A DNA stretch of 64,000 nt, taken from positions 1-64,000 of IMG/VR virus record IMGVR_UViG_3300044750_000003; one strand, 5' to 3'. A model generated the notes under the pieces. The model did not search any database. It saw nothing but the letters and a program-made list of their open reading frames with translations, and was not told the origin of the DNA. The number at the start of each line of letters is the position of its first letter. Position 1 is the first letter of the stretch. This document shows, in pieces, positions 2,321 through 56,158 of this stretch. The translations under genes and the position numbers were made by a program. This DNA is from a virus.

Positions 2321-2366
2321 ATAATTTCTCCGTTTGTGGTTGTCGGGTTACTTTAAACCAATTATT

Positions 2367-3137
2367 ATGGCTTTAATAGCAATGTGTGTGTACTGTACGG
2401 ATACTAACGGAAGGCTTGAATACACCAAAGAGTGTTTAAGATCAATAGTTTACACGGTGAACTTAAATAAACACAGACTTTTCTTAATTGACAATGGTTC
2501 TAATCAGGAAACTAAAGATTATTTGGCGGACTTCACATCTAAATTTCCATCAACAATAATCACCAATAAAGAAAACTTGGGTACTGCTAAAGGCATTAAT
2601 TTGGCGCTTAAACAACGGTTAGAAAATGAGCATTGTATTAAGGCGGATAATGATTGTGCTTGGCATATTGAAGGATGGGTAGAGGAATTGGAAGAAGCTA
2701 TAGAAAGAGAGCCAACCATAGGTATTTTAGGGCTTAAAAGAAAGGATTTAAGGCAAACACCTTATGACTCTGATCCTGATTTCAGGAGTGAGTATGTGCA
2801 GTTACCACACGAACATGGACAGAAATGGATAGCAGTTGAGAGAAGCCGTGATATCATGGGAACCTGTACCATGTTAAACTACAGGCTTATTGATAAAGTA
2901 GGGGGGATGGCACAGCCATTACCTTACGCATTTGATGATTCCCTGATGGGATTAAGATCAATACTTTCAGGATTTTGGAACGGCTTTCTTTCCCATATAG
3001 AAATTGAGCATTTAGACACGGGCGAAAACATTTACAGTCAGGAAAAAATAAATATAGCCAATGAAGCATGGCCTATTTACCACGAATGGCACAAGGGATA
3101 TGTTGATGGTACACGACCTTTATACGAAGAAATATGA
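2367..3137 (+). CDS. family 2 (GT-A fold) glycosyltransferase
   Basis: Motifs LFLIDNGSNQET, NLGTAKGINLAL and ADND. The ORF track start at 2334 is TTG; the in-frame ATG at 2367 is preferred. Confidence 0.7.
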   Translation: MALIAMCVYCTDTNGRLEYTKECLRSIVYTVNLNKHRLFLIDNGSNQETKDYLADFTSKFPSTIITNKENLGTAKGINLALKQRLENEHCIKADNDCAWHIEGWVEELEEAIEREPTIGILGLKRKDLRQTPYDSDPDFRSEYVQLPHEHGQKWIAVERSRDIMGTCTMLNYRLIDKVGGMAQPLPYAFDDSLMGLRSILSGFWNGFLSHIEIEHLDTGENIYSQEKINIANEAWPIYHEWHKGYVDGTRPLYEEI

Positions 3138-3745
3138 TTGAATTTTTAGGTGACAGCGGTGAATACGAAATGCTCACAAAGGGTATTGAACTATCTAAAG
3201 AAGTAGATGGGCTATGCTTGGAAATAGGCACACGTTTAGGGCTGTCAGCCAAAACAATATTGGATGCCATAAGATTGTATTGCCCAACAAAAACATTGGT
3301 CTGTGTAGACCCGTATGGCAGTATAATTTATGAAGGAAGAGAGGGACAGCCTTGTCGTTTAGATTATACCAACGAAATGAAATCAACATGTATGGGTAAT
3401 ATTTGGATGGATGTAAAAGAAAGTCCTGTATCATTTAAATATTTTGATTTAGAAGACACTGAATTTTTTGAAAGGTTTTCAGATGGAGTTCCAGTTTATG
3501 AACTTGAAAAGAAAATAGTTAATCAATATTCTTTTGTTTTTTTTGATGGGCCACACAACATAGCACATATTCTAAAAGAAATACGGTTCTTTTTACCTCG
3601 TACGCCAGAAGGCGCAGTGTGGTGTTTTGATGATTGTACGCCGGATTTTTATGACCATGATTATATTGAAAAGGAACTATTTGAGCAGTGTGGTTTTGAA
3701 TTAATTGAAAAAGGACTAAAAAAGGCTTTATACCGTAAACTATGA
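3134..3745 (+). CDS. class I SAM-dependent methyltransferase-like protein
   Basis: LEIGTRLGLS (motif I like), VCVDPY and FFDGPHN. ATGA overlap with the GT2 gene. Confidence 0.5.
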   Translation: MIEFLGDSGEYEMLTKGIELSKEVDGLCLEIGTRLGLSAKTILDAIRLYCPTKTLVCVDPYGSIIYEGREGQPCRLDYTNEMKSTCMGNIWMDVKESPVSFKYFDLEDTEFFERFSDGVPVYELEKKIVNQYSFVFFDGPHNIAHILKEIRFFLPRTPEGAVWCFDDCTPDFYDHDYIEKELFEQCGFELIEKGLKKALYRKL

Positions 3746-4365
3746 GCATCCCAATAATTTCAGTTTGTTCACACCCTGAACACGCTTATAAACTTATCAA
3801 TTCAGCCTCTAAAAATGGGTGGGAACTGCATTTATTGGAAGTGGAATGGAAAGGATTTGGCACCAAACTAATTGCCACACATGAATATTTAAAACTACAT
3901 CCTGAAATAGATAGATTTATATTTGCAGATGCTTTTGATGTGTTGGTATTTGGAACAGAACATGAATTTGAGAAAAAACGTACCCCAGGACAAACATTTG
4001 TATGTAGTGCCGAAAAAGGTTGTTGGCCAAATCCAAAACTTGAAAGTTTTTATCGTAAAAAAGAACATGGGTTTAGTTATTTAAATAGTGGATTATTTTA
4101 TGCTACCAAAAAAGCATTTGAATGGTATATGGGAACTAATCCTCCTGATTATTATACAGACGATCAAGAATGGCTTACAGATAGATTTTTGAATAATAGT
4201 GATATCCAATTAGATACAGAGCAGGTATTGTTCAATTCACATAGCTTTATAGCAGAAGGAGAATATACTTACAATAATGGTCGTGTTCAGATATTAGGAA
4301 ACGAGCCAATTTTCGTGCATTCAAATGGAAAAACTTTAGACCCAAAGTTAGATGAACTTATCTGA
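3742..4365 (+). CDS. GT-A glycosyltransferase resembling the LH3/PLOD glycosyltransferase domain
   Basis: FADAFDV (DxD), CWPNP, YLNSGLFY, DDQEW and HSNGKT in the order I recall for that family. ATGA overlap upstream. Confidence 0.5.
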   Translation: MSIPIISVCSHPEHAYKLINSASKNGWELHLLEVEWKGFGTKLIATHEYLKLHPEIDRFIFADAFDVLVFGTEHEFEKKRTPGQTFVCSAEKGCWPNPKLESFYRKKEHGFSYLNSGLFYATKKAFEWYMGTNPPDYYTDDQEWLTDRFLNNSDIQLDTEQVLFNSHSFIAEGEYTYNNGRVQILGNEPIFVHSNGKTLDPKLDELI

Positions 4366-5065
4366 ACTAAAAACAATTTGGCAGGATAATCCTGATACCC
4401 ACGAACATATTAAAGACCTGTTCACGCAATTAGTTAATCAGGACGAACAACTTTGTGCACATCGTGACTTTGTGGAAAAGAATGCTTTTGGCTTTGGCGA
4501 AAGATGCTTTCAGTATTTTTGGGATATATTGGTACAGGAAATGCCCGAAGTATTTACGTTGTGTGAGGTAGGAGTTTTTCGTTTTCAGATCGTATCACTC
4601 ATTCAGCTATTGGCAGACAGACAGGGGAAGACAGTTGACAGGTATTGTGTGACACCACTAAGCCCAATAGGTATCGGTTGGGAAAGTGATTATAAGGCTG
4701 ATGGCGAAAGGATACATGATGAATTTAATTTGGTAAAGGATTATACCATTTATCATGGACTATCAACTAATCCTGACATAATTGAAAGGGCTTATATTTC
4801 CTCTCCTTACGATATAGTTTATATAGACGGTTCACATGAAAAAGTTGATGTGGACAGCGATTTAAATTTTTATCCGTCATTTGTGAAAAAAGGCGGTTAT
4901 TTGGTAATAGATGACGCCGCATGTCGTATGAATATGAAATGGGGAAACTTCCAGGGTATAGCCGATGTATGCGTTGCTTTGGCAGAATGGGAACAAACTG
5001 AAATAGCTAAAGAGTTTGAATTTCAATTTAACGTGGTTCATCTTATGGTTTATAAAAGAAAATGA
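4352..5065 (+). CDS. class I SAM-dependent methyltransferase (Methyltransf_24/CmcI-like)
   Basis: C-terminal YIDGSHEKVDVDSDL...KKGGYLVIDD pattern. Overlaps the previous gene by 14 nt. Confidence 0.55.
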   Translation: MNLSELKTIWQDNPDTHEHIKDLFTQLVNQDEQLCAHRDFVEKNAFGFGERCFQYFWDILVQEMPEVFTLCEVGVFRFQIVSLIQLLADRQGKTVDRYCVTPLSPIGIGWESDYKADGERIHDEFNLVKDYTIYHGLSTNPDIIERAYISSPYDIVYIDGSHEKVDVDSDLNFYPSFVKKGGYLVIDDAACRMNMKWGNFQGIADVCVALAEWEQTEIAKEFEFQFNVVHLMVYKRK

Positions 5066-7459: not shown

Positions 7460-7986
7460 GATACGATGCCAACTGTAAGGAACCAATGGTTGAAAAGTAC
7501 CCTACTTTAAAGGGTATAACAGATGACGACAAGCTTTTGAGGGTAGTCATTTGGATGATAAGTGAAGATAGTCCATTTCTGTTAGCAGACCGTGAAGATT
7601 ATGCGTCAAGGCTCACTAAGGTTTTAAAGCACGTTGGCGCTGAATACCCAAGAATAGCAGAGGGGGAGAACAAAGAGTATAACGCTGTAGCCACGGGACT
7701 TTTTATGATGATGGATAATTTGGTTTATGTAGCGTGGCAATCAAAGCTGATTAATTTTCATCAACTTACCATGTTTTTGAGGTCGCCACTAAACTTAGAC
7801 GATCCTGAAAAATCAATAAAGCAACGGCTCGACATTGAAAAATACCTGCCCGATATGCACAAATCATTAGTAGAATATGAAAGACAAATATTCCCCGATA
7901 CGCATACCAGAAAGGTAGTAAAGAAAGAAACAGCGCGACTTTTACAATTTGCCGAGAAGTTTAGTGATGTAAAAGGGGTAATTTAA
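7456..7986 (+). CDS. putative small terminase subunit (by position only)
   Basis: 176 aa ORF immediately upstream of, and TAATG-coupled to, the large terminase. No motif recognised. Confidence 0.3.
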   Translation: MRYDANCKEPMVEKYPTLKGITDDDKLLRVVIWMISEDSPFLLADREDYASRLTKVLKHVGAEYPRIAEGENKEYNAVATGLFMMMDNLVYVAWQSKLINFHQLTMFLRSPLNLDDPEKSIKQRLDIEKYLPDMHKSLVEYERQIFPDTHTRKVVKKETARLLQFAEKFSDVKGVI

Positions 7987-10103
7987 TGAAATTATACACA
8001 GTAGATTATTCAGAAATAAGCGGATACACAGAATTTGGCGGTTATAAAATACCACTCCCTAAAATGCCCCCTAAGTCACAGATGGAAAACTACGGTCTAT
8101 CTGAAAAGCAACAAAAATTCCGGCATACTGAAACTCCGAAATCCTTATTATACCGGAAAAATTTTGTAAGCAAGGAAGAAGAAGAATGGATAGCAAGGGA
8201 ATGGCATAAGCGCAAAAATGGAATTTGGATTTTAATAAAAGGGCAACCAATTTATTTCACGGGGCCTTATTACTTTTTTTTAAATTATTGGTGGACTATA
8301 AAAAATATACATCCTGAGTTTCGTCTTTTTCAGTGCCATATATTCCAGTTGTGGAATATGATAGTCAGGAATATAAACTGCTATGGGTTATTCCTTATTG
8401 GCCCACGAAGGGGGGGTAAAACAGAATTTACGTTAGGAGAAGAGTATGAGTTTTGTAGCCGTGTAAAGAACGTACAGGGGCATAATCAATCTAAAAACGA
8501 CGAGGAAGCCTATAAAAACTTTAAGCGTATCACAAGGGCTAATAAGAAGATGATCTGGTTTATGAAGCCTGTCCATAAAGGATCAGATGACCCCGAAGAT
8601 CGTTTAGAGTTTTTATATCCATCTGAACGTATGACCGATGCCAAAATGAGAGGCATGGCAGAGAATGATGAGAATACGGAGGAAGTAAAATATTCAGAGG
8701 AAGAGTTAGGCTCAAAGATTGACTTTGAACCTGCTAAAGCGAGTGCCTATGACGGGCAGGAAACTAATCGTGGTATCCTGAACGAAGCAGGAAAGTTAGA
8801 AACCATGTCACTTATTAAGTGGTGGGAAGTATTTAAGCCAACATTACACTATTTTGATGGAGAGGAAATTGTAGGTAAATGTTGGATTGAAAGCTCTATA
8901 GAGGAAATTGATGATGACCAAATAGAAGAAGTAAATTCATTATGGACAGACAGCAACCCCGATGAGTTAAACGAAAATGGAAGAACCACATCAGGATTAT
9001 TCAGGGTATTTATATCTGTTGAAGATGTAGCAAAACCGGATGAGTGGGGCTTCCCTAAACGCGAAGAAGCGAAATTAAGACTTGAAAGGGAAATAGCAAA
9101 CTTACGTGCAAAAGGGAAAGAAAAAGCGATAAGCAGCTTATTAAGAAAATCGCCACAAAAAGTTGAAGATGCACTTACTCCGTCAGGAGAAAAAGGCGCA
9201 TTTAACAAGGATAGACTACAGGAGATATTTCAGCGTATAGATTACCCATCCGCCTATAATTTACCACCTAAAGAATGGATTGTTAAAGGGAATTTTGAAT
9301 GGGTAAATGGACAGCGAGACACCAAAGTAATTTTCAGACCTTGCGATGACGGTAAATGGGATGTTTCGCAATTGCTTAAAGACGGGAAAGATAATTTGTC
9401 GGTAATGATAGGCGGTGTACGATATCCAGGAAATATACGTCACTATAGAGGTGGTTGCGACCCTTTCGAGCATGATTTATCTGAGATTGTGGATGCTAAC
9501 AGAGCATCTAAAGGCGCGGCAATGATATTCAGGATGTATGATGATATGGTAGACGGAGCTAAGAAACATGATGATGGCGTACCATTGGATTTTGCATGGG
9601 AATGGGAAACAAATCAATTTGTGGCAGATTACTTCGCCCGTGAAGATGACCCAAATGTATTTTTTGAGGATATGCTAATGATGCATGTTTACTACGGCAC
9701 ACAAATGAATGTGGAGAATAACAAGCGTTCTATTAAAGGGTATTTTAGGGCGCGTGGGTATGCTGAATATTTGATGGACAGACCCGAAAGTACGTTTGAC
9801 AGCAAGGAATATGAAGCACGGGGGGTAAAACAAGTGGGAACGCCTGCTACTACTGATACCATTGACCAATATTTTATGGCTATAGCCCACTATGTAATGA
9901 TGTACTCAAATGCCATTAAACACAGGAGAATTGTATTAGCTTGGCTTAGTTTGAACAAAAGCAAAAAATCACGTACTTCAAACGATACTGGCGTAGCGGC
10001 AGGTTGGACACTTTTAGGTAAGGAAAAGATGTATTTAAGATTCCCGGATGAGCAAGTTGAAGAAAGTAAAGGCGATACATGGTTTGTTACGTATAAAGTT
10101 TGA
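7986..10103 (+). CDS. terL: terminase large subunit
   Basis: Walker A LIGPRRGGKTEF, ILNEAG Walker B-like segment, later GCDPFEHD nuclease-like motif. 705 aa, directly upstream of the portal candidate. Confidence 0.7.
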   Translation: MKLYTVDYSEISGYTEFGGYKIPLPKMPPKSQMENYGLSEKQQKFRHTETPKSLLYRKNFVSKEEEEWIAREWHKRKNGIWILIKGQPIYFTGPYYFFLNYWWTIKNIHPEFRLFQCHIFQLWNMIVRNINCYGLFLIGPRRGGKTEFTLGEEYEFCSRVKNVQGHNQSKNDEEAYKNFKRITRANKKMIWFMKPVHKGSDDPEDRLEFLYPSERMTDAKMRGMAENDENTEEVKYSEEELGSKIDFEPAKASAYDGQETNRGILNEAGKLETMSLIKWWEVFKPTLHYFDGEEIVGKCWIESSIEEIDDDQIEEVNSLWTDSNPDELNENGRTTSGLFRVFISVEDVAKPDEWGFPKREEAKLRLEREIANLRAKGKEKAISSLLRKSPQKVEDALTPSGEKGAFNKDRLQEIFQRIDYPSAYNLPPKEWIVKGNFEWVNGQRDTKVIFRPCDDGKWDVSQLLKDGKDNLSVMIGGVRYPGNIRHYRGGCDPFEHDLSEIVDANRASKGAAMIFRMYDDMVDGAKKHDDGVPLDFAWEWETNQFVADYFAREDDPNVFFEDMLMMHVYYGTQMNVENNKRSIKGYFRARGYAEYLMDRPESTFDSKEYEARGVKQVGTPATTDTIDQYFMAIAHYVMMYSNAIKHRRIVLAWLSLNKSKKSRTSNDTGVAAGWTLLGKEKMYLRFPDEQVEESKGDTWFVTYKV

Positions 10104-10161: not shown

Positions 10162-12495
10162 ATGGAAAAATTAAAGTTCGCCACAAATTATCTAAAAGAA
10201 ACACAGTACCCTTTTCCTGATGAAGCCAATCCTGTAAAAGATGAGGGCTATTTTTTAGCCGCTTGTAACGCCATGTGTTCTAAATACTTTATGAACAGGT
10301 GTGCCTTACCTTATGATGGTTGGGGAGTACGCAGAAGCATTGCTGAACTAAGGGCGTACCGTCACGGCAGAAACAACATTAACAAGTACAAGAACTGGAT
10401 GATAGGGATGCCTGACCAATCGGGTGAGCGAAAAACAACGTTAAATATTTCGTGGGACATGCTTCAAATACTCCCGCAAAAGATGGATGCAGTATTGGGT
10501 TTCCTGATGAAGACGAAGTACGACATTAACGTGCAGGCGGGGGACTATGAGGCGTTAATGGACAAAAAGGCAAAAGTAGCCATAGCCAAAATAGTAACGG
10601 ATATCAGGTTGGGCAATATGCTATCCGTAGTCAACTCCAACCACACCGTAAACTTAGCACCGCCAAAGATACCAGTAGCCAACAACTCCGTACCTATACA
10701 GACCCCACAGGATGTTGATTTAGCCCAAAGCATAGGACTATTCATGTTGGAGGAAGAAAGTGCCTTAGAGAACCTGATAGACACCACACGCTACATTTCT
10801 AAATCAGATGGCATAGAAGATTTAATCAATGACGACCTGATTACCTGCGGATACGCCGGAAGAAGAATATTTACCAACCCCAACACGAATGAAGTGGAGG
10901 AAGGGTATGTAGATGTAGAACGGGCAGTATTCCCTACTTCACAATACCGTGATTACCGGGATGCCTCTTGGGGAGGTTGGTGGGAACGCATCAGCATAGC
11001 CGAACTCAGGCGCTCAAGTAACCTTACTGACAAACAAGTAGTGGAGATAGCACGGAGATATGCCGATACCAACAGGGCAGGATTTTACTCATCCCTATAC
11101 ACCAATAACGATCAGTTTGATTTTAGGATGATAGATCAGATAGAGGTCGATGTATTCCGTGGCTACTGGATAGGCAGTAAACAGGTAAAAGTAACAAGTG
11201 TCACAAGGAAGAACGGCTCATTGGTAGTCAACAAAGTTGATAATGACTACGAATTGGAAAATGTAGCCAATAACAAGGGTAAATCCTTGGATGCCTTTTC
11301 TAACATGACGGTATTTAAAGCCTCTTTGGTATTGGGGTCAAGCTATGTTTTTGACTATGGAGAGGACACCGACATCAACTATAAAACTGAGGGTGGTAAA
11401 AAATGGCCGCTGTTCCCGTTAAGGTTTGCCCGTACAGGTTCAACAAGCCTAGTGGAACGCTCTATTCCTTTCGTGGATGACGCACAGCTTATCAACCTTA
11501 AGCTACGTGTAGCAAGGGCTAAGATGCCTGCACCACCTAACTTAGCCATAGACAAAGGTGCATTAGAGGGAATGAAGATAGACGGTGTATCCTACAAACC
11601 ACAGCAACTACTAAAACTGCTACAGGACGAAGGATACCTGTTGATGGATACCAAGAACCAATGGGGGCAAAATCAGGGCGCAGGAAGACCCGTAGTCCCT
11701 ATAGGGACAGACCTGATGCAAATTATCAGCGCATGGTGGGAAGATATGAACCGAACCATAGGCATGATAGAAAAGGTAACAGGCGTAAATGATATTTTTG
11801 CTGCCCAAACACCACATGAGCAAACAGGGTTAGGCGTATCAAAACTACTTTTAGAAGGCGCTCAAAACTCATTAACGCCACTTATCAATTCAGGTGAGCA
11901 AATGATACAGGGTACTTATGAAGTGGTAGCTTCAAAATGGCAATGTGTAGCGAAGTATGCTACCCCTGAGCAAAAGAAGAAGTTATCTATTTCAAGGAGT
12001 TTGGAGATAGTAGCTGTAAGTGAGAAGATTTTTGATTACGATTTTGACACCATCGTGCGCCCCGGTTTTTCAGATGCAGACAAGGAAAGAATGATGAATG
12101 ATTTGCAAAACATGAGAAGTGCTAGCAGGCAAGGTGGTCAGGCATCTATGAGTGAGAATGATTTTTTAATTGTTTTTTCTATGATCCGTTCAGGCAGACT
12201 AAAACAGGCAGAAATATACACTGCTTATGCGGTTAACAAGCGCCAACAGCAGGCTCAGCAGGAACAACAGCAAATGATACAGCAGAACGGGCAAGTTCAG
12301 CAGCAATCTCTACAGGCAAAAGGCCAAACAGACTCACAACTTAATCAACAAGAGGCACAGAATGATGCAGCTTTACAGCAGCAAAAATTTGAAGCACAAT
12401 CACGCCAGGCTGTGCAGGTTGAAATAGTAAAAGGACAAGCAAGATTAAATGAGATTAGGTTAAAATCATTGTTAGAACCACGAAAGATAGCTTAA
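10162..12495 (+). CDS. portal protein (by position and size)
   Basis: 777 aa ORF following terL, with a Q-rich C-terminal tail. Confidence 0.55.
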   Translation: MEKLKFATNYLKETQYPFPDEANPVKDEGYFLAACNAMCSKYFMNRCALPYDGWGVRRSIAELRAYRHGRNNINKYKNWMIGMPDQSGERKTTLNISWDMLQILPQKMDAVLGFLMKTKYDINVQAGDYEALMDKKAKVAIAKIVTDIRLGNMLSVVNSNHTVNLAPPKIPVANNSVPIQTPQDVDLAQSIGLFMLEEESALENLIDTTRYISKSDGIEDLINDDLITCGYAGRRIFTNPNTNEVEEGYVDVERAVFPTSQYRDYRDASWGGWWERISIAELRRSSNLTDKQVVEIARRYADTNRAGFYSSLYTNNDQFDFRMIDQIEVDVFRGYWIGSKQVKVTSVTRKNGSLVVNKVDNDYELENVANNKGKSLDAFSNMTVFKASLVLGSSYVFDYGEDTDINYKTEGGKKWPLFPLRFARTGSTSLVERSIPFVDDAQLINLKLRVARAKMPAPPNLAIDKGALEGMKIDGVSYKPQQLLKLLQDEGYLLMDTKNQWGQNQGAGRPVVPIGTDLMQIISAWWEDMNRTIGMIEKVTGVNDIFAAQTPHEQTGLGVSKLLLEGAQNSLTPLINSGEQMIQGTYEVVASKWQCVAKYATPEQKKKLSISRSLEIVAVSEKIFDYDFDTIVRPGFSDADKERMMNDLQNMRSASRQGGQASMSENDFLIVFSMIRSGRLKQAEIYTAYAVNKRQQQAQQEQQQMIQQNGQVQQQSLQAKGQTDSQLNQQEAQNDAALQQQKFEAQSRQAVQVEIVKGQARLNEIRLKSLLEPRKIA

Positions 12496-13484
12496 CGTAA
12501 CAGATACCTGAACCACTTCAATATTGCATGGTGATTATAGGCAGCAATATCGTGTATATTATCTTCAACTGATTCAGCCCTATGCTGCATGGTATATTCC
12601 AATACTTCTGCCATATTTGATTCACTATTTTGGTCTGCTTTTCGGCAATGAAGCCAGTTAATAGCATTAGATACAACAACAGGAACATGCGATGCCACAC
12701 AATCAGCAGTTACAATATTGAACGTTTCTGTAAAGCTAACCTGCATACATGCATCCATATCGGCAATTAACTTTACGAACTCTGAGTGTTCAAGCCATCC
12801 TATTTCTACTAATTTATGACGTGTACCTTCAAATAAAGCGCGCAATGACTTAACTACGGATTCTCCACGCTGTTCTACCCGACTTGAATTTACGTAGAAA
12901 TGCACTACAGCCTTTCTTTTCTCTGCCCATAGTATGGCGGCAACCGCCTGTGATAATTGGTTCTTAAATGGCCTGATGGCACCAAAGCATCCTATTTTAT
13001 ACAGGTGCTTGCGCTTATATGGCTCGCATCCATTGAACTCAGTAACTGGGTATATATTAGGCAGGTAAATATTTGGTATACCTAGTTCTTGAAAATCATA
13101 TGATGTTTGATCGTGGTTAAATGATACGACAATGAACTTAACATATTCCTTTACCCATGCTATTGAGTTACCTTCCATTGCCAGGAACGGTATACGGCTA
13201 TGTATGCGCACTACAAATCTAATATGTGTATGAAGCGATACTAACTCACGCAACTTATCAGGCGATACCCATATAGCCTCTATGATGCATATATCAGGTC
13301 TGAACCTATGAAGCCATTTATCTATTTCATTCCCGTCCCTACAGAACTCTAAAACAGCTTGTGTGTGTGGAAACTTATTCACAGCATCTACAACGAACCT
13401 GGCTGAATTACGAAGACCTGCTTTGGATGGAATAATATCGCTGCCATATTCAGAGTTTGTGCGTACAAGAAATAGTATTTTCAT
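12492..13484 (-). CDS. GT-B fold (GT4-like) glycosyltransferase
   Basis: SFTETFNIVTADCVASHVPVVVS resembles the E-x7-E region of GT4 enzymes. The track start at 13490 is TTG; ATG at 13484 is preferred. Its stop overlaps the portal stop within TTAA (12492-12495). Confidence 0.55.
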   Translation of the reverse strand: MKILFLVRTNSEYGSDIIPSKAGLRNSARFVVDAVNKFPHTQAVLEFCRDGNEIDKWLHRFRPDICIIEAIWVSPDKLRELVSLHTHIRFVVRIHSRIPFLAMEGNSIAWVKEYVKFIVVSFNHDQTSYDFQELGIPNIYLPNIYPVTEFNGCEPYKRKHLYKIGCFGAIRPFKNQLSQAVAAILWAEKRKAVVHFYVNSSRVEQRGESVVKSLRALFEGTRHKLVEIGWLEHSEFVKLIADMDACMQVSFTETFNIVTADCVASHVPVVVSNAINWLHCRKADQNSESNMAEVLEYTMQHRAESVEDNIHDIAAYNHHAILKWFRYLLR

Positions 13485-13500
13485 ACACAAAGCTAACTAA

Positions 13501-13689
13501 TTAATGCAATACACCGAAATGCTGTAAAGCCCAAATTAATAAAATAATCAGAACCAAAGCATAGAGCAATCCTCTGATACGAGGGGTGATTAGAGGGCCA
13601 AAAATTAAGGTTATTATCCAAAATATAACTTCTATTACTATAACTGCAATTACGAGATATAGCAGAAAGAATAGGATGCTTGTTAACAT
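13501..13689 (-). CDS. small membrane protein with two predicted TM helices
   Basis: 62 aa, almost entirely hydrophobic, with a central PRIRG turn. Confidence 0.5.
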   Translation of the reverse strand: MLTSILFFLLYLVIAVIVIEVIFWIITLIFGPLITPRIRGLLYALVLIILLIWALQHFGVLH

Positions 13690-13734
13690 GGCTTTAAGTT
13701 TAGTGATTAACTATTTTATTTACAGATTGTTTTA

Positions 13735-13775
13735 AAATAAAAAACCGTAGCCGGATGAAGTGTCGCGTGCTACGG
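13735..13775 (-). terminator. rho-independent terminator
   Basis: On the minus strand, ccgtagc ... gctacgg (7 bp stem) is followed by TTTTTTATTT. It lies downstream of the 69 aa gene. Confidence 0.5.
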
Positions 13776-13838
13776 TCAATGAAATCAGTTACCTTATGAG
13801 AACTTAAATCTAAAATTAAGTTTTGGTAATTACAAATA

Positions 13839-14048
13839 TTATCTTGGATATTCCTGAATGCCTTTAACACATTGTTCAGCAAAGTCAGGATAGCACGTAA
13901 CAGGTGTTGTTACAGCAGGAGTTCCTGAAACATAATTAAGTAATGAATCCTGTGTAGATGCTGAATTGTTACCAAAGGGGCTTAGTTCTGTAGCGGGTAA
14001 CGATACACCTGTTGCAGGTGGATACGTCATTGTTAAATTTGATGCCAT
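13839..14048 (-). CDS. small S/T/P-rich protein, possible paralogue of 5445-5669
   Basis: 69 aa ORF, last gene of the reverse-strand operon, followed by a terminator. Confidence 0.5.
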   Translation of the reverse strand: MASNLTMTYPPATGVSLPATELSPFGNNSASTQDSLLNYVSGTPAVTTPVTCYPDFAEQCVKGIQEYPR

Positions 14049-14061
14049 GATTTAATGTTTT

Positions 14062-14313
14062 TTAGGATAAATATATAAACTTAATTTCTAAAATATGTAC
14101 CAAGTGCTTTCCATCAATCTCGGTTGCGATAATTGGATTATATAAAACTTTTTTACCAAGTAAACTTTTGTCAGCCTTTTCACCTACTATAACCACCGTG
14201 CCTGTGTTTGGTTTTTGCAAAACCGTCTCAGGTAAAAATAAACCTGATGGCATTTGCCTTATTGGTTCTGTTGGTTCAATCAGTATTCTATTTCCTAATA
14301 TTTTCATTTCCAT
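14062..14313 (-). CDS. GroES/Cpn10-like co-chaperonin (T4 gp31 analogue)
   Basis: LGNRILIEP...SGLFLPE...NTGTVVIVGE...GKKVLY matches the Cpn10 pattern. About 83 aa. Confidence 0.7.
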   Translation of the reverse strand: MEMKILGNRILIEPTEPIRQMPSGLFLPETVLQKPNTGTVVIVGEKADKSLLGKKVLYNPIIATEIDGKHLVHILEIKFIYLS

Positions 14314-14329
14314 TTACCGTCTTTAAATA

Positions 14330-14520
14330 TTTCAATTTTATTACAAATTTGACATTTGCGTGTACGAAAGGTTTTTTGTAGCCAAGTATGGCCAAGAAAA
14401 GTGCAGTGAACTACCCATCCACGCCAAAGGCGATGGGATGGGCTTCGGGTTTCATAGAGTGTGCTTTGTTGCCAAAGTCTGATTTACTCTCCACCTTTGT
14501 AATGGACAGTTCCTGCCCAT
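14330..14520 (-). ncRNA. candidate TnpB omega-RNA (reRNA) scaffold; boundaries not resolved
   Basis: TnpB guide RNAs are expected to overlap the 3' end of tnpB and extend downstream. A strong hairpin, cccatcc-cat-cgcc-ttt-ggcg-t-ggatggg, lies at 14414-14442 over the last codons. A 97 nt non-coding tail separates it from the next gene. Confidence 0.35.
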
Positions 14521-15634
14521 ATATTTTTAATCCTTCTTTAAGAATATTCTTTGAAGCATTTAAATCACGGTCTAATACGTGTCCGTTTTTGCAAGTCCAT
14601 TCTCTAATTGAAAGATTTAAGTCTTGATTTATCCAACCACATTCACAACAGGTTTTAGAACTTGGATACCAGCGATTTATTTTAACAATTTGCTTGTCAT
14701 TCCAATCTGCTTTGTATTCAAGCAACCTTACAAAATTTCCCCAACTGGCATCTGATATGTGTTTGGCAAGTTTATGGTTTTTGACCATTCCTTTCACATT
14801 CAAATCTTCCAATGCGATTATATCAAAATCAGTTACCAATTTGTGAGATACCTTATGTAAATTATCCATTCGTGAGTTGGTTATCTTCTCGTGAATTAAG
14901 GCTATCTTTCGTCTTTGTTTTTCAAACGAATTACTGCCATTTGTTTTACGAGAAAGATGTTTTTGTGCCTTTGCTAACTTTTTTTCATATTGTTTTGTGT
15001 ATTTGTTATTCTTAAATTTAATTCCATCAGAAGTAATGACAAAATCCTTCAAACCTAAATCTATTCCGCAAACCGCACCAGTTTTTTCTTTTGGCTGATA
15101 TTGCTCTTCGGATAGTATTGATACAAAATATTTTCCTGTTGGTGTTTTGCTTAAAGTGCATTTACCAATTTCGCCTTTTACTTCACGGTGAACGTTAACT
15201 TTAATTCCTTCTTTGAACTTTGGTGCGTAAAATTTACCATCTTCCAGTTTGGCAAATTGTGGAACAGTAAATGTGTTCTTCTTTTTTCTCGATTTAAATC
15301 TTGGAAACTTTGCATTTCCACGAAAGAAGTTCACGTATGCAGTATCCAAACATCTTAAAGCAAATTGTAATGATTGGCTATTAACTTCTTTAAGCCAAAT
15401 AGTTTCATCTTTTTTCTTTAATTCTGTTAAGGTTGCTGCTTGTGCATAGTAGTTATTAGACTTTTTATCTGCTTGATATTGTTCTTTACGCTCATTCAGA
15501 AAATGATTATAGACAAATCGGATACCTCCAAAATGCTTATACAACAACACTTTTTGCTCTTGTGTTGGTTGCATCTCAAATTGATATGTCCGAAATATTG
15601 TCTTCATTCTACTATTAAATAGTGTTGTCATCAT
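14411..15634 (-). CDS. tnpB: TnpB, IS200/IS605-family RNA-guided RuvC endonuclease
   Basis: N-terminal RTYQFEMQPTQEQ; RuvC-I GIDLGLKD; RuvC-II ALEDLN; zinc finger CCECG...CKNGH; RuvC-III DRDLNASKNI. The true start may be the third ATG at 15607. Confidence 0.85.
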   Translation of the reverse strand: MMTTLFNSRMKTIFRTYQFEMQPTQEQKVLLYKHFGGIRFVYNHFLNERKEQYQADKKSNNYYAQAATLTELKKKDETIWLKEVNSQSLQFALRCLDTAYVNFFRGNAKFPRFKSRKKKNTFTVPQFAKLEDGKFYAPKFKEGIKVNVHREVKGEIGKCTLSKTPTGKYFVSILSEEQYQPKEKTGAVCGIDLGLKDFVITSDGIKFKNNKYTKQYEKKLAKAQKHLSRKTNGSNSFEKQRRKIALIHEKITNSRMDNLHKVSHKLVTDFDIIALEDLNVKGMVKNHKLAKHISDASWGNFVRLLEYKADWNDKQIVKINRWYPSSKTCCECGWINQDLNLSIREWTCKNGHVLDRDLNASKNILKEGLKIYGQELSITKVESKSDFGNKAHSMKPEAHPIAFGVDG

Positions 15635-15664
15635 TTTTAGATAAAAAGTAAAGGAATTTAATTT

Positions 15665-15859
15665 TCATATCTCAAAAACCAATTTTAACTTATCACCTAT
15701 TTTTTTTAAAAGTTGGGTATTAATGCCTGTTAATTTACCATTTTCTAACTTATTAATGGTAGATGTTGACATCCCTAAACTTGATGCAAGATTTTGTTGT
15801 GATATTTTTATTTTGTTACGTTCGGTTCGTATTTGCAAACCTATTTTTTTCATGTTCAT
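15665..15859 (-). CDS. XRE-family helix-turn-helix DNA-binding protein
   Basis: ISQQNLASSLGMSTSTINKLENGK is a classic Cro/C1-type HTH. 64 aa, 30 nt upstream of tnpB and co-oriented with it. Confidence 0.75.
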   Translation of the reverse strand: MNMKKIGLQIRTERNKIKISQQNLASSLGMSTSTINKLENGKLTGINTQLLKKIGDKLKLVFEI

Positions 15860-15955
15860 TATTCAAATTTATATATTCATGGCGACATATCCAAAATAGT
15901 AAGCGTAAATAAATCAATCGATATTTACCTTTATACGAAAACCAACTCCGATTAA

Positions 15956-17089
15956 ATGGATAACTCGATTGACTTAATACAAGAAGCAGGTTTAAAAATT
16001 AATGGTCAGGAACCATTAGTTCAGGAAAAACCCGAAGCAACCCAATCACAAGAACAAACTAACACCGACAATATCCCGGCAGACAAGGCAGCGATTGCCG
16101 AACCTGCCAAAGCAACCGAACAGGCGCAACCACAGTTTAACTTTGACGACGAATTGGTAAAGATTACCGATGGAAAGATAAAAAGTCAAACCGACCTTGC
16201 GGGAATGTTAGAGAAGTATGGCCAGTTAAATGACTTTGAAAGCCGTTTACAGCAACTCGACAGCGAGAATACCGAACTAAAAGCCAAAGTAGCAACAGAC
16301 CCGTTCGCTAATGATTTATCAAAAAAATTCAACGACCTGCTCAAAGGCGGCGCAAAACCCGAACAGGTAGACGCATTTCTGAAACTGAACAAGCATGACA
16401 ACTTTGAAAGTATGTCCGCTTATGATGCTAAGTTACTGGCGCTACAGGTAAAAGAGGGATTGACAGAGAAAGAGGCTAAAGTATACCTTGAGTCCTCATA
16501 TAAACTGAACCCAGAAGAGCATGACGAAGATACTATTGCAAGAGAGCAAATCCGCCTAAAAGTAGATGCAAGAGGCGACCGTGAGTTCCTTACCGCCCAT
16601 AAAGCGCAGGTATCACAAGCCCCGGCATCGGAATATGAACAACAGCAACAGGTATTGCAGGAAAAGCAGACAGCGCATTTGGATAAACTTGCGCCCATAG
16701 CTAAAAATGCATTGCAGTCTATCAGCTTCGCCAACCAAAACATCAATGGTAAGGCAGATGATAAGGCGATAATGGCGGACTTTACACCCTCTGAGGAAAG
16801 CGTGAAGTCATTGCCTGATAAGGTAGCACAGTTCATTAAAAACGAATGGAATAACATACCTGCGAATGAAGATGGCGCTAAACGCATATCTGACTTCGCA
16901 AAAAGTATTCTCATATTGGAAAATCACGAGACATGGCGGCAACACGCGGTCAATGTCGCTGAAAAGAAGATACGGGAAGAATACCATAACCCATCGGCTA
17001 TACAAAGAGGTAAGGATAACACTGAGAATGCAGGTAAATCAGATAAGGATGCACGGTCTAAGTTTGTAGAAGAATATTTCAAACTTTAA
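15956..17089 (+). CDS. scaffolding protein (by position and composition)
   Basis: 377 aa, acidic, A/E/K/Q-rich and helical, immediately upstream of the capsid gene. Confidence 0.5.
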   Translation: MDNSIDLIQEAGLKINGQEPLVQEKPEATQSQEQTNTDNIPADKAAIAEPAKATEQAQPQFNFDDELVKITDGKIKSQTDLAGMLEKYGQLNDFESRLQQLDSENTELKAKVATDPFANDLSKKFNDLLKGGAKPEQVDAFLKLNKHDNFESMSAYDAKLLALQVKEGLTEKEAKVYLESSYKLNPEEHDEDTIAREQIRLKVDARGDREFLTAHKAQVSQAPASEYEQQQQVLQEKQTAHLDKLAPIAKNALQSISFANQNINGKADDKAIMADFTPSEESVKSLPDKVAQFIKNEWNNIPANEDGAKRISDFAKSILILENHETWRQHAVNVAEKKIREEYHNPSAIQRGKDNTENAGKSDKDARSKFVEEYFKL

Positions 17090-17106
17090 TTTAAACAACT
17101 AAGACA

Positions 17107-18573
17107 ATGCCAGTAAATCCATATAATTACGCAAATCAGCCATCTACAGTGATGGGCACCACCTCGGAAGGTTTTGTAACCGGACTTGGTTTAATTGCGG
17201 ACGTACCGCAGGTGAGAAAAAAATTACTGTCCCGTCACGGGATGGACAAGAATTGGTATACTATGCTCAAGGAAATGGGTATGGGAACACCAGTAGAAGG
17301 CCCCAACTACGCACACTGGGAGCAGGATTGGATAATCAACAACTTCTTGGCAGGAACGGTAATAACACCGTCTACAGGCGCAGGAACATCTGTTGTTATC
17401 GCCCTTGATTCCGCTTCTATGTATACCACTACTGTAACAGGCTACGGAACACAGAGTTTCTCTTACCCTGCACAGTGGGACATCATTAAGTTGGTAGATA
17501 ACTCAGAGGCGCAAATCATATTGAAAGACGAAACCGTTACCCCGCATAGGATAACAGTTAAACCACGCCTTTCAACAAATGATATCGCTACCAAGCTGAC
17601 CGCAGGCAACCGTTACTGGATCACCACTAACGCCTTTGCAGAAGGTACATTAGGCGCTGACCCTAAAGAACCACGTTTATACCGTCAACAGAATAACCCA
17701 CAGATCATTAAAACAGCCTATGGTATCACAGGTTCGGCTATGACCGACCGTATGCCTGTAGTGTCTGTATCGGGTTCTGACGGTGGCAACTACATGATGA
17801 TAGTAGGTTCTGAAAGCACTGAAAAGCTGCACATGGACAGAATATCTAAAGCACTGTGGTTCTCTGTACAGGGTGATAACAACGTTACCCAAAACATGGC
17901 AGCCGCACAAAACCGTGTAGCGCCTGTCCGTACCACTCAGGGCTTGGACGACTATATCACTAACTCAGGTGGTAACCTGTTATCTTATTCTTATGGCAAT
18001 TTCGCTATGAGTGACTTTGATAACATTGGTACTATCCTGCAACGTGAGAGAGCCGGAACAAAAGCGTTTATATTGCCGATGGCTTACGGATTACGTACGC
18101 AGATTGACAATACGCTAAAAACGTACATGAACAATACCTGTTTCCAGTATGCAGCAGCAAGCGGAAAGATCAGTTCAGATATGTTTGATTCGTTCCAGGA
18201 TAAGAACGACTTCTTCCTGTGGCTGTCATTTGACGGTGTGCATAAAGGCGGTTACAACTACCTGCTACGCACTCAGGAAGAACTGAACGAGCAGATGGGT
18301 GCGGGAACAGAAGGCTACAACTGGTCAGGAGTAGGCTATGTACTGCCAATTGATATTGTACAGAGCAAGTTCGACAAGGACGCTACTGCATCAGTAGGCT
18401 ACCGTTACAAAGCATTGGGAGGTTATTCAAGGGAAATGGAACAACACTATACAGGTGGCGCAGGCTTAGACCCGGCAACATCTTCTATAGATGCCAAGTT
18501 CCTTGATATCCGTTCAGAAATCGGTTCTGAGCAGGCATTAGCTAACCTGATGATAAAATTAATAGGTATCTAA
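17107..18573 (+). CDS. major capsid protein (by position)
   Basis: 488 aa ORF after the scaffold candidate, followed by a terminator hairpin. Confidence 0.55.
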   Translation: MPVNPYNYANQPSTVMGTTSEGFVTGLGLIADVPQVRKKLLSRHGMDKNWYTMLKEMGMGTPVEGPNYAHWEQDWIINNFLAGTVITPSTGAGTSVVIALDSASMYTTTVTGYGTQSFSYPAQWDIIKLVDNSEAQIILKDETVTPHRITVKPRLSTNDIATKLTAGNRYWITTNAFAEGTLGADPKEPRLYRQQNNPQIIKTAYGITGSAMTDRMPVVSVSGSDGGNYMMIVGSESTEKLHMDRISKALWFSVQGDNNVTQNMAAAQNRVAPVRTTQGLDDYITNSGGNLLSYSYGNFAMSDFDNIGTILQRERAGTKAFILPMAYGLRTQIDNTLKTYMNNTCFQYAAASGKISSDMFDSFQDKNDFFLWLSFDGVHKGGYNYLLRTQEELNEQMGAGTEGYNWSGVGYVLPIDIVQSKFDKDATASVGYRYKALGGYSREMEQHYTGGAGLDPATSSIDAKFLDIRSEIGSEQALANLMIKLIGI

Positions 18574-18588
18574 TTAATTTAAACTATG

Positions 18589-18613
18589 AAAGGGGTGTAA
18601 AAAGCCCCTTTTT
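18589..18613 (+). terminator. rho-independent terminator after the capsid gene
   Basis: aaagggg-tgtaaaaag-ccccttt followed by a T run. Confidence 0.5.
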
Positions 18614-18634
18614 AACATAAAAACCAAAAAACAG

Positions 18635-19750
18635 ATGAGTATTTTCGTGGATAATGAGGTAGTAACCAAAAAGAGATTATTTGAGATATTGAGCGTACCA
18701 TTAGCCTCAGTACCTTCCGCAAGAGAGAAGCGTTTCCAGTTTCCTACAAGAACAGACCAAGACGGCAACAAGCGCCACTTAGGTCGTTTACTATGTAATG
18801 AATATTCTATATATGTACCTTCTTTAAACCGGGAAGTACGTGTAAGATGGGCAAACTCTCAGAAAAAGGATAAGGACGGTAACTTTGAGTACTTCCCTAC
18901 TGACAACGAAATGAAGTCAGGTGAGGGTGGCGAAGTGCTGATGAGCGACGAAATGGTATACCTGTTTTGGTATCTGTGCCCCATGAACCGCCAAAGCCCT
19001 TTCAGGAAGCCACATGCCCCTGTATTCTATGAGTTCTTAGATAATGACCACTTGGCAAGAGTGTCCAACACGAAGGACGAAACACGCATCACAGCAATGT
19101 CAATTGTATTGGGCGCGTCATCATGGCCAATGTCAAGGCTGCGTACCCTTGCAAAAGGTATCGGTATCGGCGGGGTGGGTGATATGACGGATGACGTGGT
19201 AAAATCACAGCTAAAGGACAGGGCATTTAAAGACCCGCTTACTTTTATAAATCAGGCAGAAAGCAGGGAAGTAGCATTTACAGGAAAGATACAGGAAGCT
19301 ATAGACAGGAATATATTAGTACTGAAAATGGTAAACGGTATGCAGCGGTGGTATCTTAATAATGCGGAGATCATCCCGGTACAATACGGCATAGATAGCA
19401 GAAAAGTATTGGACGACCACCTGTCAGCCAAATGGTATATGTACTCTGACGAAATAAATCAGACGTTAGACAATACAAGCGTGGCAAGTAATTTGTCACA
19501 GCCTGAGAACGATGAACACTTTGAAAACCCTGATATGATAGAAACTATTTCAGAGGTTGACAATGAGTTGTGGAGTGCCTATCAGGCATTGAAAGCCGAT
19601 ACATTTAAATTGGAAAGGGTAATGAAGTATGCCGATATGGACTTAAACAATCCGGGTATCCATACGAACAGCCGTAAAGCGGCAGAGGCATTATCAGAAG
19701 AAATAGCACTTTATAAAAAAGGTCTTGAGTTAGAGAAACTCAAAGGTTGA
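18635..19750 (+). CDS. hypothetical protein, possibly virion associated
   Basis: 371 aa ORF downstream of the capsid gene, followed by a strong terminator. Confidence 0.6.
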   Translation: MSIFVDNEVVTKKRLFEILSVPLASVPSAREKRFQFPTRTDQDGNKRHLGRLLCNEYSIYVPSLNREVRVRWANSQKKDKDGNFEYFPTDNEMKSGEGGEVLMSDEMVYLFWYLCPMNRQSPFRKPHAPVFYEFLDNDHLARVSNTKDETRITAMSIVLGASSWPMSRLRTLAKGIGIGGVGDMTDDVVKSQLKDRAFKDPLTFINQAESREVAFTGKIQEAIDRNILVLKMVNGMQRWYLNNAEIIPVQYGIDSRKVLDDHLSAKWYMYSDEINQTLDNTSVASNLSQPENDEHFENPDMIETISEVDNELWSAYQALKADTFKLERVMKYADMDLNNPGIHTNSRKAAEALSEEIALYKKGLELEKLKG

Positions 19751-55000: not shown

Positions 55001-56158
55001 CTACATAAATTCCATTAAATGACTTTCATCCATGCGCTTAATGATACCCGCGGCTATTTCTTTATCTGATAAGTTAGTATCGTCCCTTACATAAGCCTGT
55101 CCGTTGTGTACAAAACAATGGCTTTCACATTTACCGCTTTTAACAGGTAAATCAACATTCATGGCTTTAAGGTGATAAATGATGCCCTTAATATTCTTTT
55201 CGTCCGTTCTGATAAAACTCTCATTAGAATTTAAAAACTCAAAAGGTGATTTAACCAATCCTAAATCCTGTAATTTTTTATACCAGTTTGCCGGAATCAC
55301 CAAAGCGTTGGCGCTTGAAAAAAGTAAGCCACCTAATTTTTGCAATGTTTCAGTAGTAAAGGTATGCCCTGAATTAATCAGTTCATTTATATTTGCCATG
55401 ATAACATCATTCATACTACTTGGCAACCATGATATCTGCTCTTCCTCTAATATCTTTTTAAAGATGTTTACAGGTATACCTTGATTTAAAATATCATGTA
55501 TCTTATAGGCTATCTGATAGCTTTGTGTCAACCTGTCCTCGTTGATATTAATATCTACAAAATCAAAGTCTATACCAGATGTGACTTGCGTATCAAAGCA
55601 CCTTATGCCCTTTCTGTAAATATTTAGTTGTGATGGTTCAGTTTTAAAGAACATCCGGCACAAACTGTTTGAATAACTTTCCCTGCGGTTAAAAGCAAAG
55701 TAACTATCATATTTAAGCATTACATCGGATAGTTCACCGTTCATAGGTATATAGACAACAGTTTCATCCCGTACACCTGAAAAACCGCTTGGTGCCCAAA
55801 TAGTATTGATAGTATGGCCACCTTCATCAATGGCATTTGACAATACTTCCCTAATAGCCATCCATCCTGTCCATTTTGGCCCCATTTCGGTAGTTAAAGA
55901 AGTTTCAATGCCGTCAACAGTAATTACGTTTACAGCGTTTGTACGGTGCATCTTAACGTTAAAGTCTATATCAATCTGCTTTTCTCCGGCAAATATAATA
56001 GGCTTACAGTCGTTCCTTAAAAGCCATGCTAAGGCATATTTCCAGCCACTACCGAACATCCCTATTTTGCCTGATTGTTCTCTTTTGGTGCTGGAACCTA
56101 TCAGCATTAAATCTTCTTGGCAAATAAGCCCCTCGTTTGAAATTCTTAAATAGTTCAT
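55001..56158 (-). CDS. possible GHKL/Bergerat-fold ATPase-like protein
   Basis: AIREVLSNAIDEGG looks like the ExxxNAxD N-box, and GKIGMFGSGWKYA is a glycine-rich loop. The motif order is atypical, so this call is weak. Confidence 0.3.
   Translation of the reverse strand: MNYLRISNEGLICQEDLMLIGSSTKREQSGKIGMFGSGWKYALAWLLRNDCKPIIFAGEKQIDIDFNVKMHRTNAVNVITVDGIETSLTTEMGPKWTGWMAIREVLSNAIDEGGHTINTIWAPSGFSGVRDETVVYIPMNGELSDVMLKYDSYFAFNRRESYSNSLCRMFFKTEPSQLNIYRKGIRCFDTQVTSGIDFDFVDININEDRLTQSYQIAYKIHDILNQGIPVNIFKKILEEEQISWLPSSMNDVIMANINELINSGHTFTTETLQKLGGLLFSSANALVIPANWYKKLQDLGLVKSPFEFLNSNESFIRTDEKNIKGIIYHLKAMNVDLPVKSGKCESHCFVHNGQAYVRDDTNLSDKEIAAGIIKRMDESHLMEFM

Follow-up and report, generated by a model that had tools for sequence, protein, structure and literature searches.

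The 64,000-nucleotide (nt) stretch of viral DNA analysed here (hereafter the window) comprises positions 1 to 64,000 of IMG/VR record IMGVR_UViG_3300044750_000003 and carries, within a phage packaging and head module, a tnpB gene just downstream of a small gene for an XRE/Cro-C1-type helix-turn-helix (HTH) protein. This tnpB gene very probably belongs to a decaying IS200/IS605-type (IS605) insertion in a small phage open reading frame (ORF), from which the transposase end has been lost and to which the HTH gene is not a partner. An earlier note on this DNA had seen no standard insertion sequence (IS) architecture here and had offered two explanations, either the phage has domesticated an RNA-guided nuclease together with a dedicated regulator, or an IS in decay happens to lie next to a regulator of the phage. 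The latter was borne out: full-length relatives are classical IS200/IS605 elements with a left end (LE) hairpin and a Y1 tnpA, both lost in the window, and the HTH gene that made the architecture look unusual lies outside the element.

The right end (RE) was fixed at 14405 because more than 40 related copies diverge there; these share a 3' end of the form ...GAAGCCCA-hairpin-TGGGTAGTTCAC(T/A/C), beyond which the flanks are unrelated. DNA homology of the window to the more than 40 related elements extends from about 15626 to 14405 only and stops abruptly on both sides. The other boundary was obtained by reconstruction. Joining of the two flanks at TTTAT/GCAC gave an in-frame ORF of 42 amino acids (aa), MKIKFLYFLCTFLGHTWLQKTFRTRKCQICNKIEIFKDGKWK, with no duplicated bases, the predicted uninserted junction reading TTTACTTTTTAT/GCACTTTTCTTGG; assignment of TTTAT to the element instead of the target was ruled out, the junction then being out of frame. 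Since the frame is restored only with TTTAT in the flank, the element was taken to span 15640–14405, with TTTAT as its target-adjacent motif (TAM). Insertion 3' of a specific tetra- or pentanucleotide, without target-site duplication, is the mode of the IS200/IS605 family, and the window copy conforms to it. That neither half of the split ORF shows damage suggests a recent event.

The rejoined ORF was compared with the same locus of five distinct sister phages (L002, L003/L067, L004/L066, L065 and L068), whose capsid proteins are 85–91% and whose portal proteins are 78–83% identical to those of the window. A homologous small ORF follows the HTH gene via an ATGA overlap in four of the five (L002, L004, L065 and L068); the window version is 62% identical to that of L068, with C10, H15, C27 and C30 invariant. 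L003 has no small ORF, and its HTH gene directly abuts the GroES-like gene. As the IS has inactivated it in the window, the small ORF is dispensable. These ORFs of about 40 aa follow the cysteine/histidine pattern M..L[YF]C.[FL]L.HTW......R.C..C.K......G.W... and gave no Pfam match; in the window and L065 the small ORF is also ATGA-coupled to the GroES-like gene.

For comparison at the level of the element, about 95 related loci were collected by IMG/VR and GTDB scans, and tnpA and HTH neighbours were counted on 52 distinct copies. The family layout is a TTTAT target, an LE hairpin, a divergent Y1 tnpA, a promoter-like region, tnpB and the RE, and full-length relatives measure 1,750–1,821 bp. 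In the 1,797-bp element of L008, for example, the LE hairpin (CCCATCCATCG...CGTGGGTGGGATGTAAGCGAC) resembles the RE hairpin, tnpA is a divergent ORF of 136 aa (Pfam Y1_Tnp, 1.2e-34; NCBIfam transpos_IS200, 3.7e-37), and a conserved block TTTG...TAnnTTTG upstream of tnpB, found in L008 and its relatives, resembles a Bacteroidota promoter. About 30 independent insertions, whose flanks further upstream are unrelated, have TTTAT directly 5' to the LE; this pentanucleotide is therefore read as target site and predicted TAM. tnpA is present in 36 of the 52 copies and missing from the other 16, so that TnpB without TnpA is common in this family. Deletion derivatives range from 371 to 1,436 bp. Miniature forms of 371–870 bp keep LE and RE with little or no tnpB (L059 4891–5408, L097 2303–2914, L107 2301–2672), and solitary RE-like ends occur at L009 8450 and L011 4909; together they look like non-autonomous elements similar to palindrome-associated transposable elements (PATE-like).

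Set against this layout, the window copy lacks its 5' part. In most relatives conservation continues for about another 573 nt upstream of tnpB; in the window only 14 nt separate the TAM from the start of homology. These are probably, if tentatively, the first bases of LE, which an internal deletion of about 560 bp would have joined to the tnpB leader, and the AATGATG that they contain resembles the LE start AATGATGGAGCG of L045. An LE hairpin was not found in the window, where only chance-level matches of 11–12 nt were obtained (6315, 59325 and others); an RE-like match at 55727 was likewise rejected as chance level. The promoter-like block of the relatives is absent upstream of the window tnpB. 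The absence of a Y1 transposase from the window, already remarked in the earlier note, extends to a further 9.6 kb of the source phage contig (Logan SRR35361594_94523, 74,847 bp): tnpA was not detected in the roughly 73.6 kb covered, out of 74.8 kb (tblastn E > 0.7; best value in the window 2.3). Thus the Y1 TnpA of the IS605 type is missing from the window copy, as is the LE hairpin, while the RE hairpin is present at 14442–14414. Because tnpA is absent here and present in 36 of the 52 relatives, the window copy is classed as an apparently defective derivative of an IS200/IS605 family member. By the established IS200/IS605 mechanism, a remnant without an LE hairpin is not mobilisable by TnpA.

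The protein itself shows no such loss. The longest tnpB ORF (14411..15634, minus strand) encodes 407 aa; the start is likely the ATG at 15607, which is preferred since relatives start there and the nine upstream codons derive from junction sequence. The 407-aa ORF matched Pfam OrfB_IS605 (2.6e-25), Cas12f1-like_TNB (2.3e-22) and HTH_OrfB_IS605 (1.7e-15) and NCBIfam guided_TnpB (338 bits, cut-off 100), IS200_TnpB (418.8 bits) and IS607_TnpB (174.9 bits), and its PHROGs class is phrog_506, 'transposase'. Alignment to ISDra2 TnpB (8BF8/8EXA) gave E = 9e-74 over residues 18–373 with all three RuvC motifs matching: GIDLG, ALEDL and DRDLN correspond to D192, E276 and D357 in the 407-aa numbering, so the catalytic triad is intact, as had been proposed for this ORF, and the gene is free of frameshifts and internal stops. 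The zinc finger that had been listed with the triad is also there; it has the form CxxC...Cx3H rather than four cysteines, and the close relative L008 shares this form. A TnpB-like nuclease-dead repressor (TldR) was ruled out by the intact D/E/D triad, and an IS607 (serine recombinase) affiliation by the Y1 TnpA of the relatives and by an IS200_TnpB score far above that for IS607_TnpB.

The closest TnpB relatives found reach 93% protein identity. By tblastn, relatives were found in 425 INPHARED phage records; an IMG/VR scan with the TnpB protein gave 59 loci with a best-segment identity of 56–97% (at least 70% for full-length matches), and a GTDB genome scan added 36 further loci, mostly from Bacteroidota (Sphingobacterium, Algoriphagus, Pedobacter, Saprospiraceae, Spirosomataceae and Flavobacteriales). 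This predominance points to Bacteroidota as the probable host of the phage. Copies 64–93% identical also occur on GTDB genome contigs L072, L074, L075, L084 and L104, binned with metagenome-assembled genomes of Methanobacterium, Patescibacteria, Saccharibacteria, Pacearchaeota and Woesearchaeota; these are likely mis-binned phage or Bacteroidota contigs, though transfer across domains may be an alternative.

The omega-RNA scaffold was modelled on an alignment of 44 distinct copies, cut to their final 150 nt. Its consensus comprises a 5' stem-loop, two long-range helices enclosing an internal hairpin, and a terminal hairpin closed by GAA...UUC. Of the 26 pairs that RNAalifold gave for the 44 sequences, 13 show compensatory changes on both sides. 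In a 31-pair model 95.9% of cells were paired, against 32–47% when partners were slid by 1–3 columns; 18 of the 31 pairs change on both sides, and none of 500 shuffles equalled the observed values. This covariation holds despite the region being protein-coding. The terminal stem (helices 5–6) swaps among relatives from GCC/GGC to GGC/GCC to AGC/GCT, and a similar hairpin stands in their LE. In the minimum free energy (MFE) fold of the window's own scaffold sequence all modelled helices formed (-38.6 kcal/mol, z = -2.5). The scaffold terminates in ...GGGUAGUUCACU at the RE boundary, 6 nt past the tnpB stop. The alignment thus points to a structured omega-RNA scaffold that overlaps RE and the 3' end of tnpB and is continued by a guide from the flank, as in the TnpB/omega-RNA (OMEGA) class of RNA-guided nucleases. 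A search of 13500–16500 with Rfam models and E-values returned a spurious long non-coding RNA match only and no omega-RNA family.

These results bear on what had been said of the tnpB 3' end. The hairpin noticed over the last tnpB codons is real and forms the last stem of the scaffold. The 97-nt tail beyond the gene, where scaffold and guide had both been expected, holds only the latter: the predicted guide takes up the first 16–20 nt or so, from 14404 downwards, and the scaffold sits in the tnpB 3' coding region. Nor is this tail a spacer, being in fact the 3' two-thirds of the disrupted phage ORF. The suggestion that the guide is the phage sequence upstream of the GroES-like gene was roughly right. 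The guide length is inferred from ISDra2. In the window the guide sequence is single-copy and is preceded by RE and not by a TAM, and TTTAT-GCACTTTTCTTGGCCA would be present only in the uninserted allele. Searches of IMG/VR with a 24-nt guide-plus-flank query and a 21-nt TAM-plus-guide query gave no match, and hence neither a natural target nor an empty site.

The position of the HTH gene had been correctly described, 30 nt upstream of the 407-aa ORF and on the same strand; the element boundary runs between the two, leaving the HTH gene outside. All five sister phages, in which tnpB is absent, have an XRE HTH gene at this position, oriented divergently to the scaffold gene; in the alignment all sister HTH proteins end F-x-I/L. 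No XRE HTH homologue was found within 1.5 kb of tnpB in any of the 52 distinct related copies (0/52). A cognate regulator would be expected inside the element and to co-occur with tnpB, and the HTH gene does neither. By synteny, then, it is a conserved phage gene that stands upstream of tnpB by chance. The domesticated nuclease with its own regulator is contradicted by the same observations, and the arrangement that the earlier note had itself named as speaking against it, an HTH gene beyond the element ends that relatives keep without tnpB, is the one found. Alignment with sister phages, which it had proposed, established this independence of the HTH gene; it did not turn up a near-identical phage with the site unoccupied.

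The syntenic XRE HTH proteins of the sister phages are merely 25–34% identical to that of the window, while the flanking capsid and portal proteins are 78–91% identical; the HTH protein looks fast-evolving and is possibly a specificity-setting regulator divergent from the scaffold/capsid operon. An exact-protein look-up retrieved no record for it, and its best NCBIfam match was an antitoxin-type HTH, far below cut-off. Just upstream of the HTH gene lies a Bacteroidota-type -7-like motif, TAAATTTG, at 15871..15864 (minus strand). A scan for sigma-70 promoters and terminators performed no better than on shuffled sequence, and no terminator-like site was found between the HTH gene, tnpB and the GroES-like gene.

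The proposed course of events is the following. A full-length element would have inserted 3' of TTTAT within the cysteine/histidine ORF of about 40 aa between the HTH and GroES-like genes, a part of the tightly coupled leftward operon in the head module. Later loss of an internal stretch of about 560 bp would have removed tnpA together with the LE hairpin and the promoter-like region and left a remnant for which excision or transposition should be impossible, even with TnpA in trans. Transcripts started at the HTH operon promoter would read through into tnpB, and TnpB would process and bind the 115-nt omega-RNA from its own 3' end, as reported for ISDra2 TnpB (PMC10278001). It would target TTTAT-GCACTTTTCTTGGCCA, the sole cognate target being the uninserted small-ORF allele in near-identical phages. 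On co-infection, cleavage and recombinational repair could copy the insert (TnpA-independent, non-restorative homing) or handicap the competitor; without such co-infections the element would be a neutral passenger heading for decay. Because the target would exist only in the uninserted allele and LE and tnpA are lost, the one route of spread left to the element would be TnpA-independent homing, into near-identical phages that infect the same cell. A recent review (PMC13565253, sections 5.7 and 6.1) takes up such 'non-restorative homing' in phages and plasmids, with evidence from plasmids. Nuclease activity, expression and omega-RNA processing are predictions throughout this scheme.

Several observations weigh against the decaying insertion and the homing proposed for it. 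No empty site was found in a near-identical phage, whether in IMG/VR, in a metagenome scan with a capsid protein query or among the collected loci, so the insertion point rests on reconstruction; the sister phages from the metagenome scan were 51–92% identical, none near enough to provide an empty site, and the predicted empty sites of 43 related insertions, sought among the collected loci, were not found either. The 14 nt at 15640–15627 match LE starts only loosely. The sister phages differ at the target (L068 reads CTGT/GTATTCCTCGG, matching neither TAM nor guide), so that no natural homing substrate was observed. Finally, the zinc finger is of the CCCH type, with a histidine as fourth ligand, and its function in this form is putative.

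Possible, if on balance unlikely, is that the remnant is inert, with a promoterless tnpB and omega-RNA scarcely made or the protein inactive, and the insert a mere scar of an inactivated gene. The window copy has lost the promoter-like block that its relatives carry (TTTG...TAnnTTTG), a histidine serves as fourth zinc ligand and no target was detected in the window or IMG/VR, all as inertness would have it; however, the insert lies within an operon with no terminator-like site upstream, the gene contains no frameshifts or stops, the catalytic triad is intact, and all modelled omega-RNA helices form in the window's MFE fold. Decidedly less probable is that the truncated element was selected as a phage weapon, a free-standing homing endonuclease guided by RNA and able to exclude or convert sibling phages during co-infection, the loss of tnpA and LE being an adaptive fixation. 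ORF and omega-RNA have stayed intact although mobility was lost, by construction the guide fits the allele without the insert, copies without tnpA turn up repeatedly on phage contigs, and an HNH_3 gene in the same operon of L002 together with two further HNH genes in the phage itself indicates that the region accepts selfish nucleases; but the locus is known from a single contig and shared by no sister phage, no target was found in IMG/VR, and an intact gene is equally expected of a recent insertion whose split-ORF fragments are both undamaged. It seems similarly doubtful that the element, since losing LE and tnpA, in effect acts as a free-standing RNA-guided homing endonuclease locked in a phage operon, which would cut the uninserted TTTAT-GCACTTTTCTTGGCCA allele and so spread between co-infecting sibling phages or exclude them; this would be a natural phage case of non-restorative homing. 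Very improbable, and largely refuted by synteny, is a functional pair of TnpB and the upstream XRE HTH protein, be it a domesticated nuclease with its regulator or a toxin–antitoxin (TA)-like module restraining TnpB: the two genes are neighbours on one strand, the HTH protein has its distant antitoxin-type match, a TA-like model of TnpB with a DNA-binding protein is cited in PMC13565253 and an Arc repressor is described for some IS605 elements (bioRxiv 10.64898/2026.09.24.754181), yet the HTH gene lies beyond the element boundary, is kept by tnpB-less sisters and adjoins none of the related tnpB copies, and the insertion split a gene that normally stands between the HTH and GroES-like genes.

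For the decaying IS200/IS605 insertion, the closest known system is an ISDra2-type IS200/IS605 element with TnpB and omega-RNA. As in ISDra2 of Deinococcus radiodurans (8BF8, 8EXA, 8H1J), the TnpB proteins align and share the RuvC motifs. The scaffold overlaps the tnpB 3' end and RE, the guide is taken from the flank 3' of RE, a pentanucleotide TAM precedes LE, and a Y1 TnpA is the partner, here in the full-length relatives of the window copy. The systems differ in the TAM, which is TTGAT in ISDra2 and TTTAT here, in the zinc finger (CCCC there, CCCH here), in the divergent orientation of tnpA in the window's family and in the loss of LE and tnpA from the window copy. tnpB without tnpA, as in 16 of the 52 family copies, recalls the ISfinder IS1341 group and miniature derivatives; those elements, however, keep LE and RE hairpins and are mobilisable by TnpA in trans, whereas the window copy, having no LE hairpin, is fixed. 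Like the free-standing homing endonucleases of phages (T4 Seg and Mob; HNH), it is a selfish nuclease gene between conserved phage genes, its predicted target is the allele without the insert, and an HNH_3 gene lies in the same operon of L002. Unlike Seg, Mob and HNH enzymes it would recognise its target by RNA, and the locus is known from sequence alone; self-protection would come from the insertion, which parts the TAM from the guide-matching flank, and not from sequence differences. The small DNA-binding protein gene adjoining tnpB recalls IS605 elements with an internal Arc regulator and the proposed TA modules of TnpB with a DNA-binding protein, but in those the regulator is inside the element and travels along, whereas here the HTH gene is outside and is kept without tnpB.

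Table 1. Coordinates of the insertion, its parts and neighbouring phage features (window numbering unless a locus handle is given).
Feature	Position	Strand	Basis or remark
5'-truncated IS200/IS605-family element, 1,236 bp: short LE remnant, tnpB, RE/omega-RNA	14405..15640	-	homology limits and ORF restoration
TTTAT, target and predicted TAM, directly 5' of element	15641..15645	-	about 30 insertions; ORF frame restored
14 nt CTAAAAATGATGAC between TAM and homology start	15627..15640	-	tentative LE remnant
tnpB	14411..15607	-	398 aa when started at the ATG shared with relatives
omega-RNA scaffold, about 115 nt, within tnpB 3' end	14405..14519	-	covariation, 44 sequences
Terminal stem-loop CCCATCC...GGATGGG (RE subterminal hairpin, last omega-RNA stem)	14414..14442	-	overlaps last tnpB codons
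Predicted guide GCACTTTTCTTGGCCA	14385..14404	-	flank directly 3' of RE; may reach TACT
Small phage ORF, 5' fragment, 28 nt	15641..15668	-	ends in TTTAT; ATG overlaps HTH stop (ATGA)
Small phage ORF, 3' fragment	14304..14404	-	stop overlaps probable GroES start 14307 (ATGA)
Small ORF of sister phage L002	L002 9444-9569	-	
Small ORF of sister phage L004	L004 9338-9460	-	
Small ORFs of sister phages L065, L068			just downstream of HTH genes
XRE/Cro-C1-type HTH gene, 64 aa, phage backbone	15665..15859	-	Pfam HTH_3 3.2e-9
Divergent intergenic region, HTH operon versus scaffold/capsid operon	15860..15955	.	promoter role inferred
GroES-like (Cpn10) gene, phage backbone	14062..14313	-	Pfam Cpn10 3.8e-9; kept in all sister phages
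HNH genes/RepL region on contig L108	L108 6088-7461 and L108 2885-3421		

The insertion lies in a tailed phage of about 75 kb. By Pfam and PHROGs its surroundings are a packaging and head module with terminase (7986–10103) and portal (10162–12495) genes, which, together with a virion structural protein, confirm the head context given in the earlier note. A leftward block of a glycosyltransferase gene, two small ORFs, the GroES-like gene, tnpB and the HTH gene is followed by a rightward putative scaffold gene (15956–17089) and a capsid/virion protein gene (17107–18573). The GroES-like gene probably starts at its second ATG, at 14307 (MKILGNR...), as in the sister phages, the listed start at 14313 adding two residues. 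A look-up with the GroES-like protein retrieved the source contig only, and megablast of 12000–19000 against INPHARED gave no match, so that the phage has no close cultured relative there. In the sister phages the stretch from the HTH gene to the small ORFs downstream of the GroES-like gene is a variable hotspot, and the tnpB insertion falls in this same hotspot; it holds an HNH_3 gene in L002 (8666–9208, minus strand), five extra small ORFs in L004 (8050–9606) and about 0.7 kb of extra sequence in L068 (4800–5475). Upstream of window position 1, the same phage contig encodes, in neighbouring genes, two HNH endonucleases of 240 and 215 aa, and also a protein with a RepL domain. A glycosyltransferase/methyltransferase cluster occupies window positions 2334–5065 (Pfam Glycos_transf_2, Methyltransf_24, GT_PLOD), and the glycosyltransferase gene between the portal gene and the GroES block is GT4-like (12492–13490); these genes may modify DNA or the virion.

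The apparent combination of TnpB with a regulator is thus best explained as an accident of insertion beside a conserved phage gene, and no new system is needed to account for it. The analysis yielded, as by-products, an IS605 subfamily of Bacteroidota and their phages with the predicted TAM TTTAT, a covariation-supported omega-RNA model and a specified guide/target pair. The latter would be suited to a test of TnpA-independent TnpB homing between phages, a process for which the support discussed in PMC13565253 comes so far mainly from plasmids.

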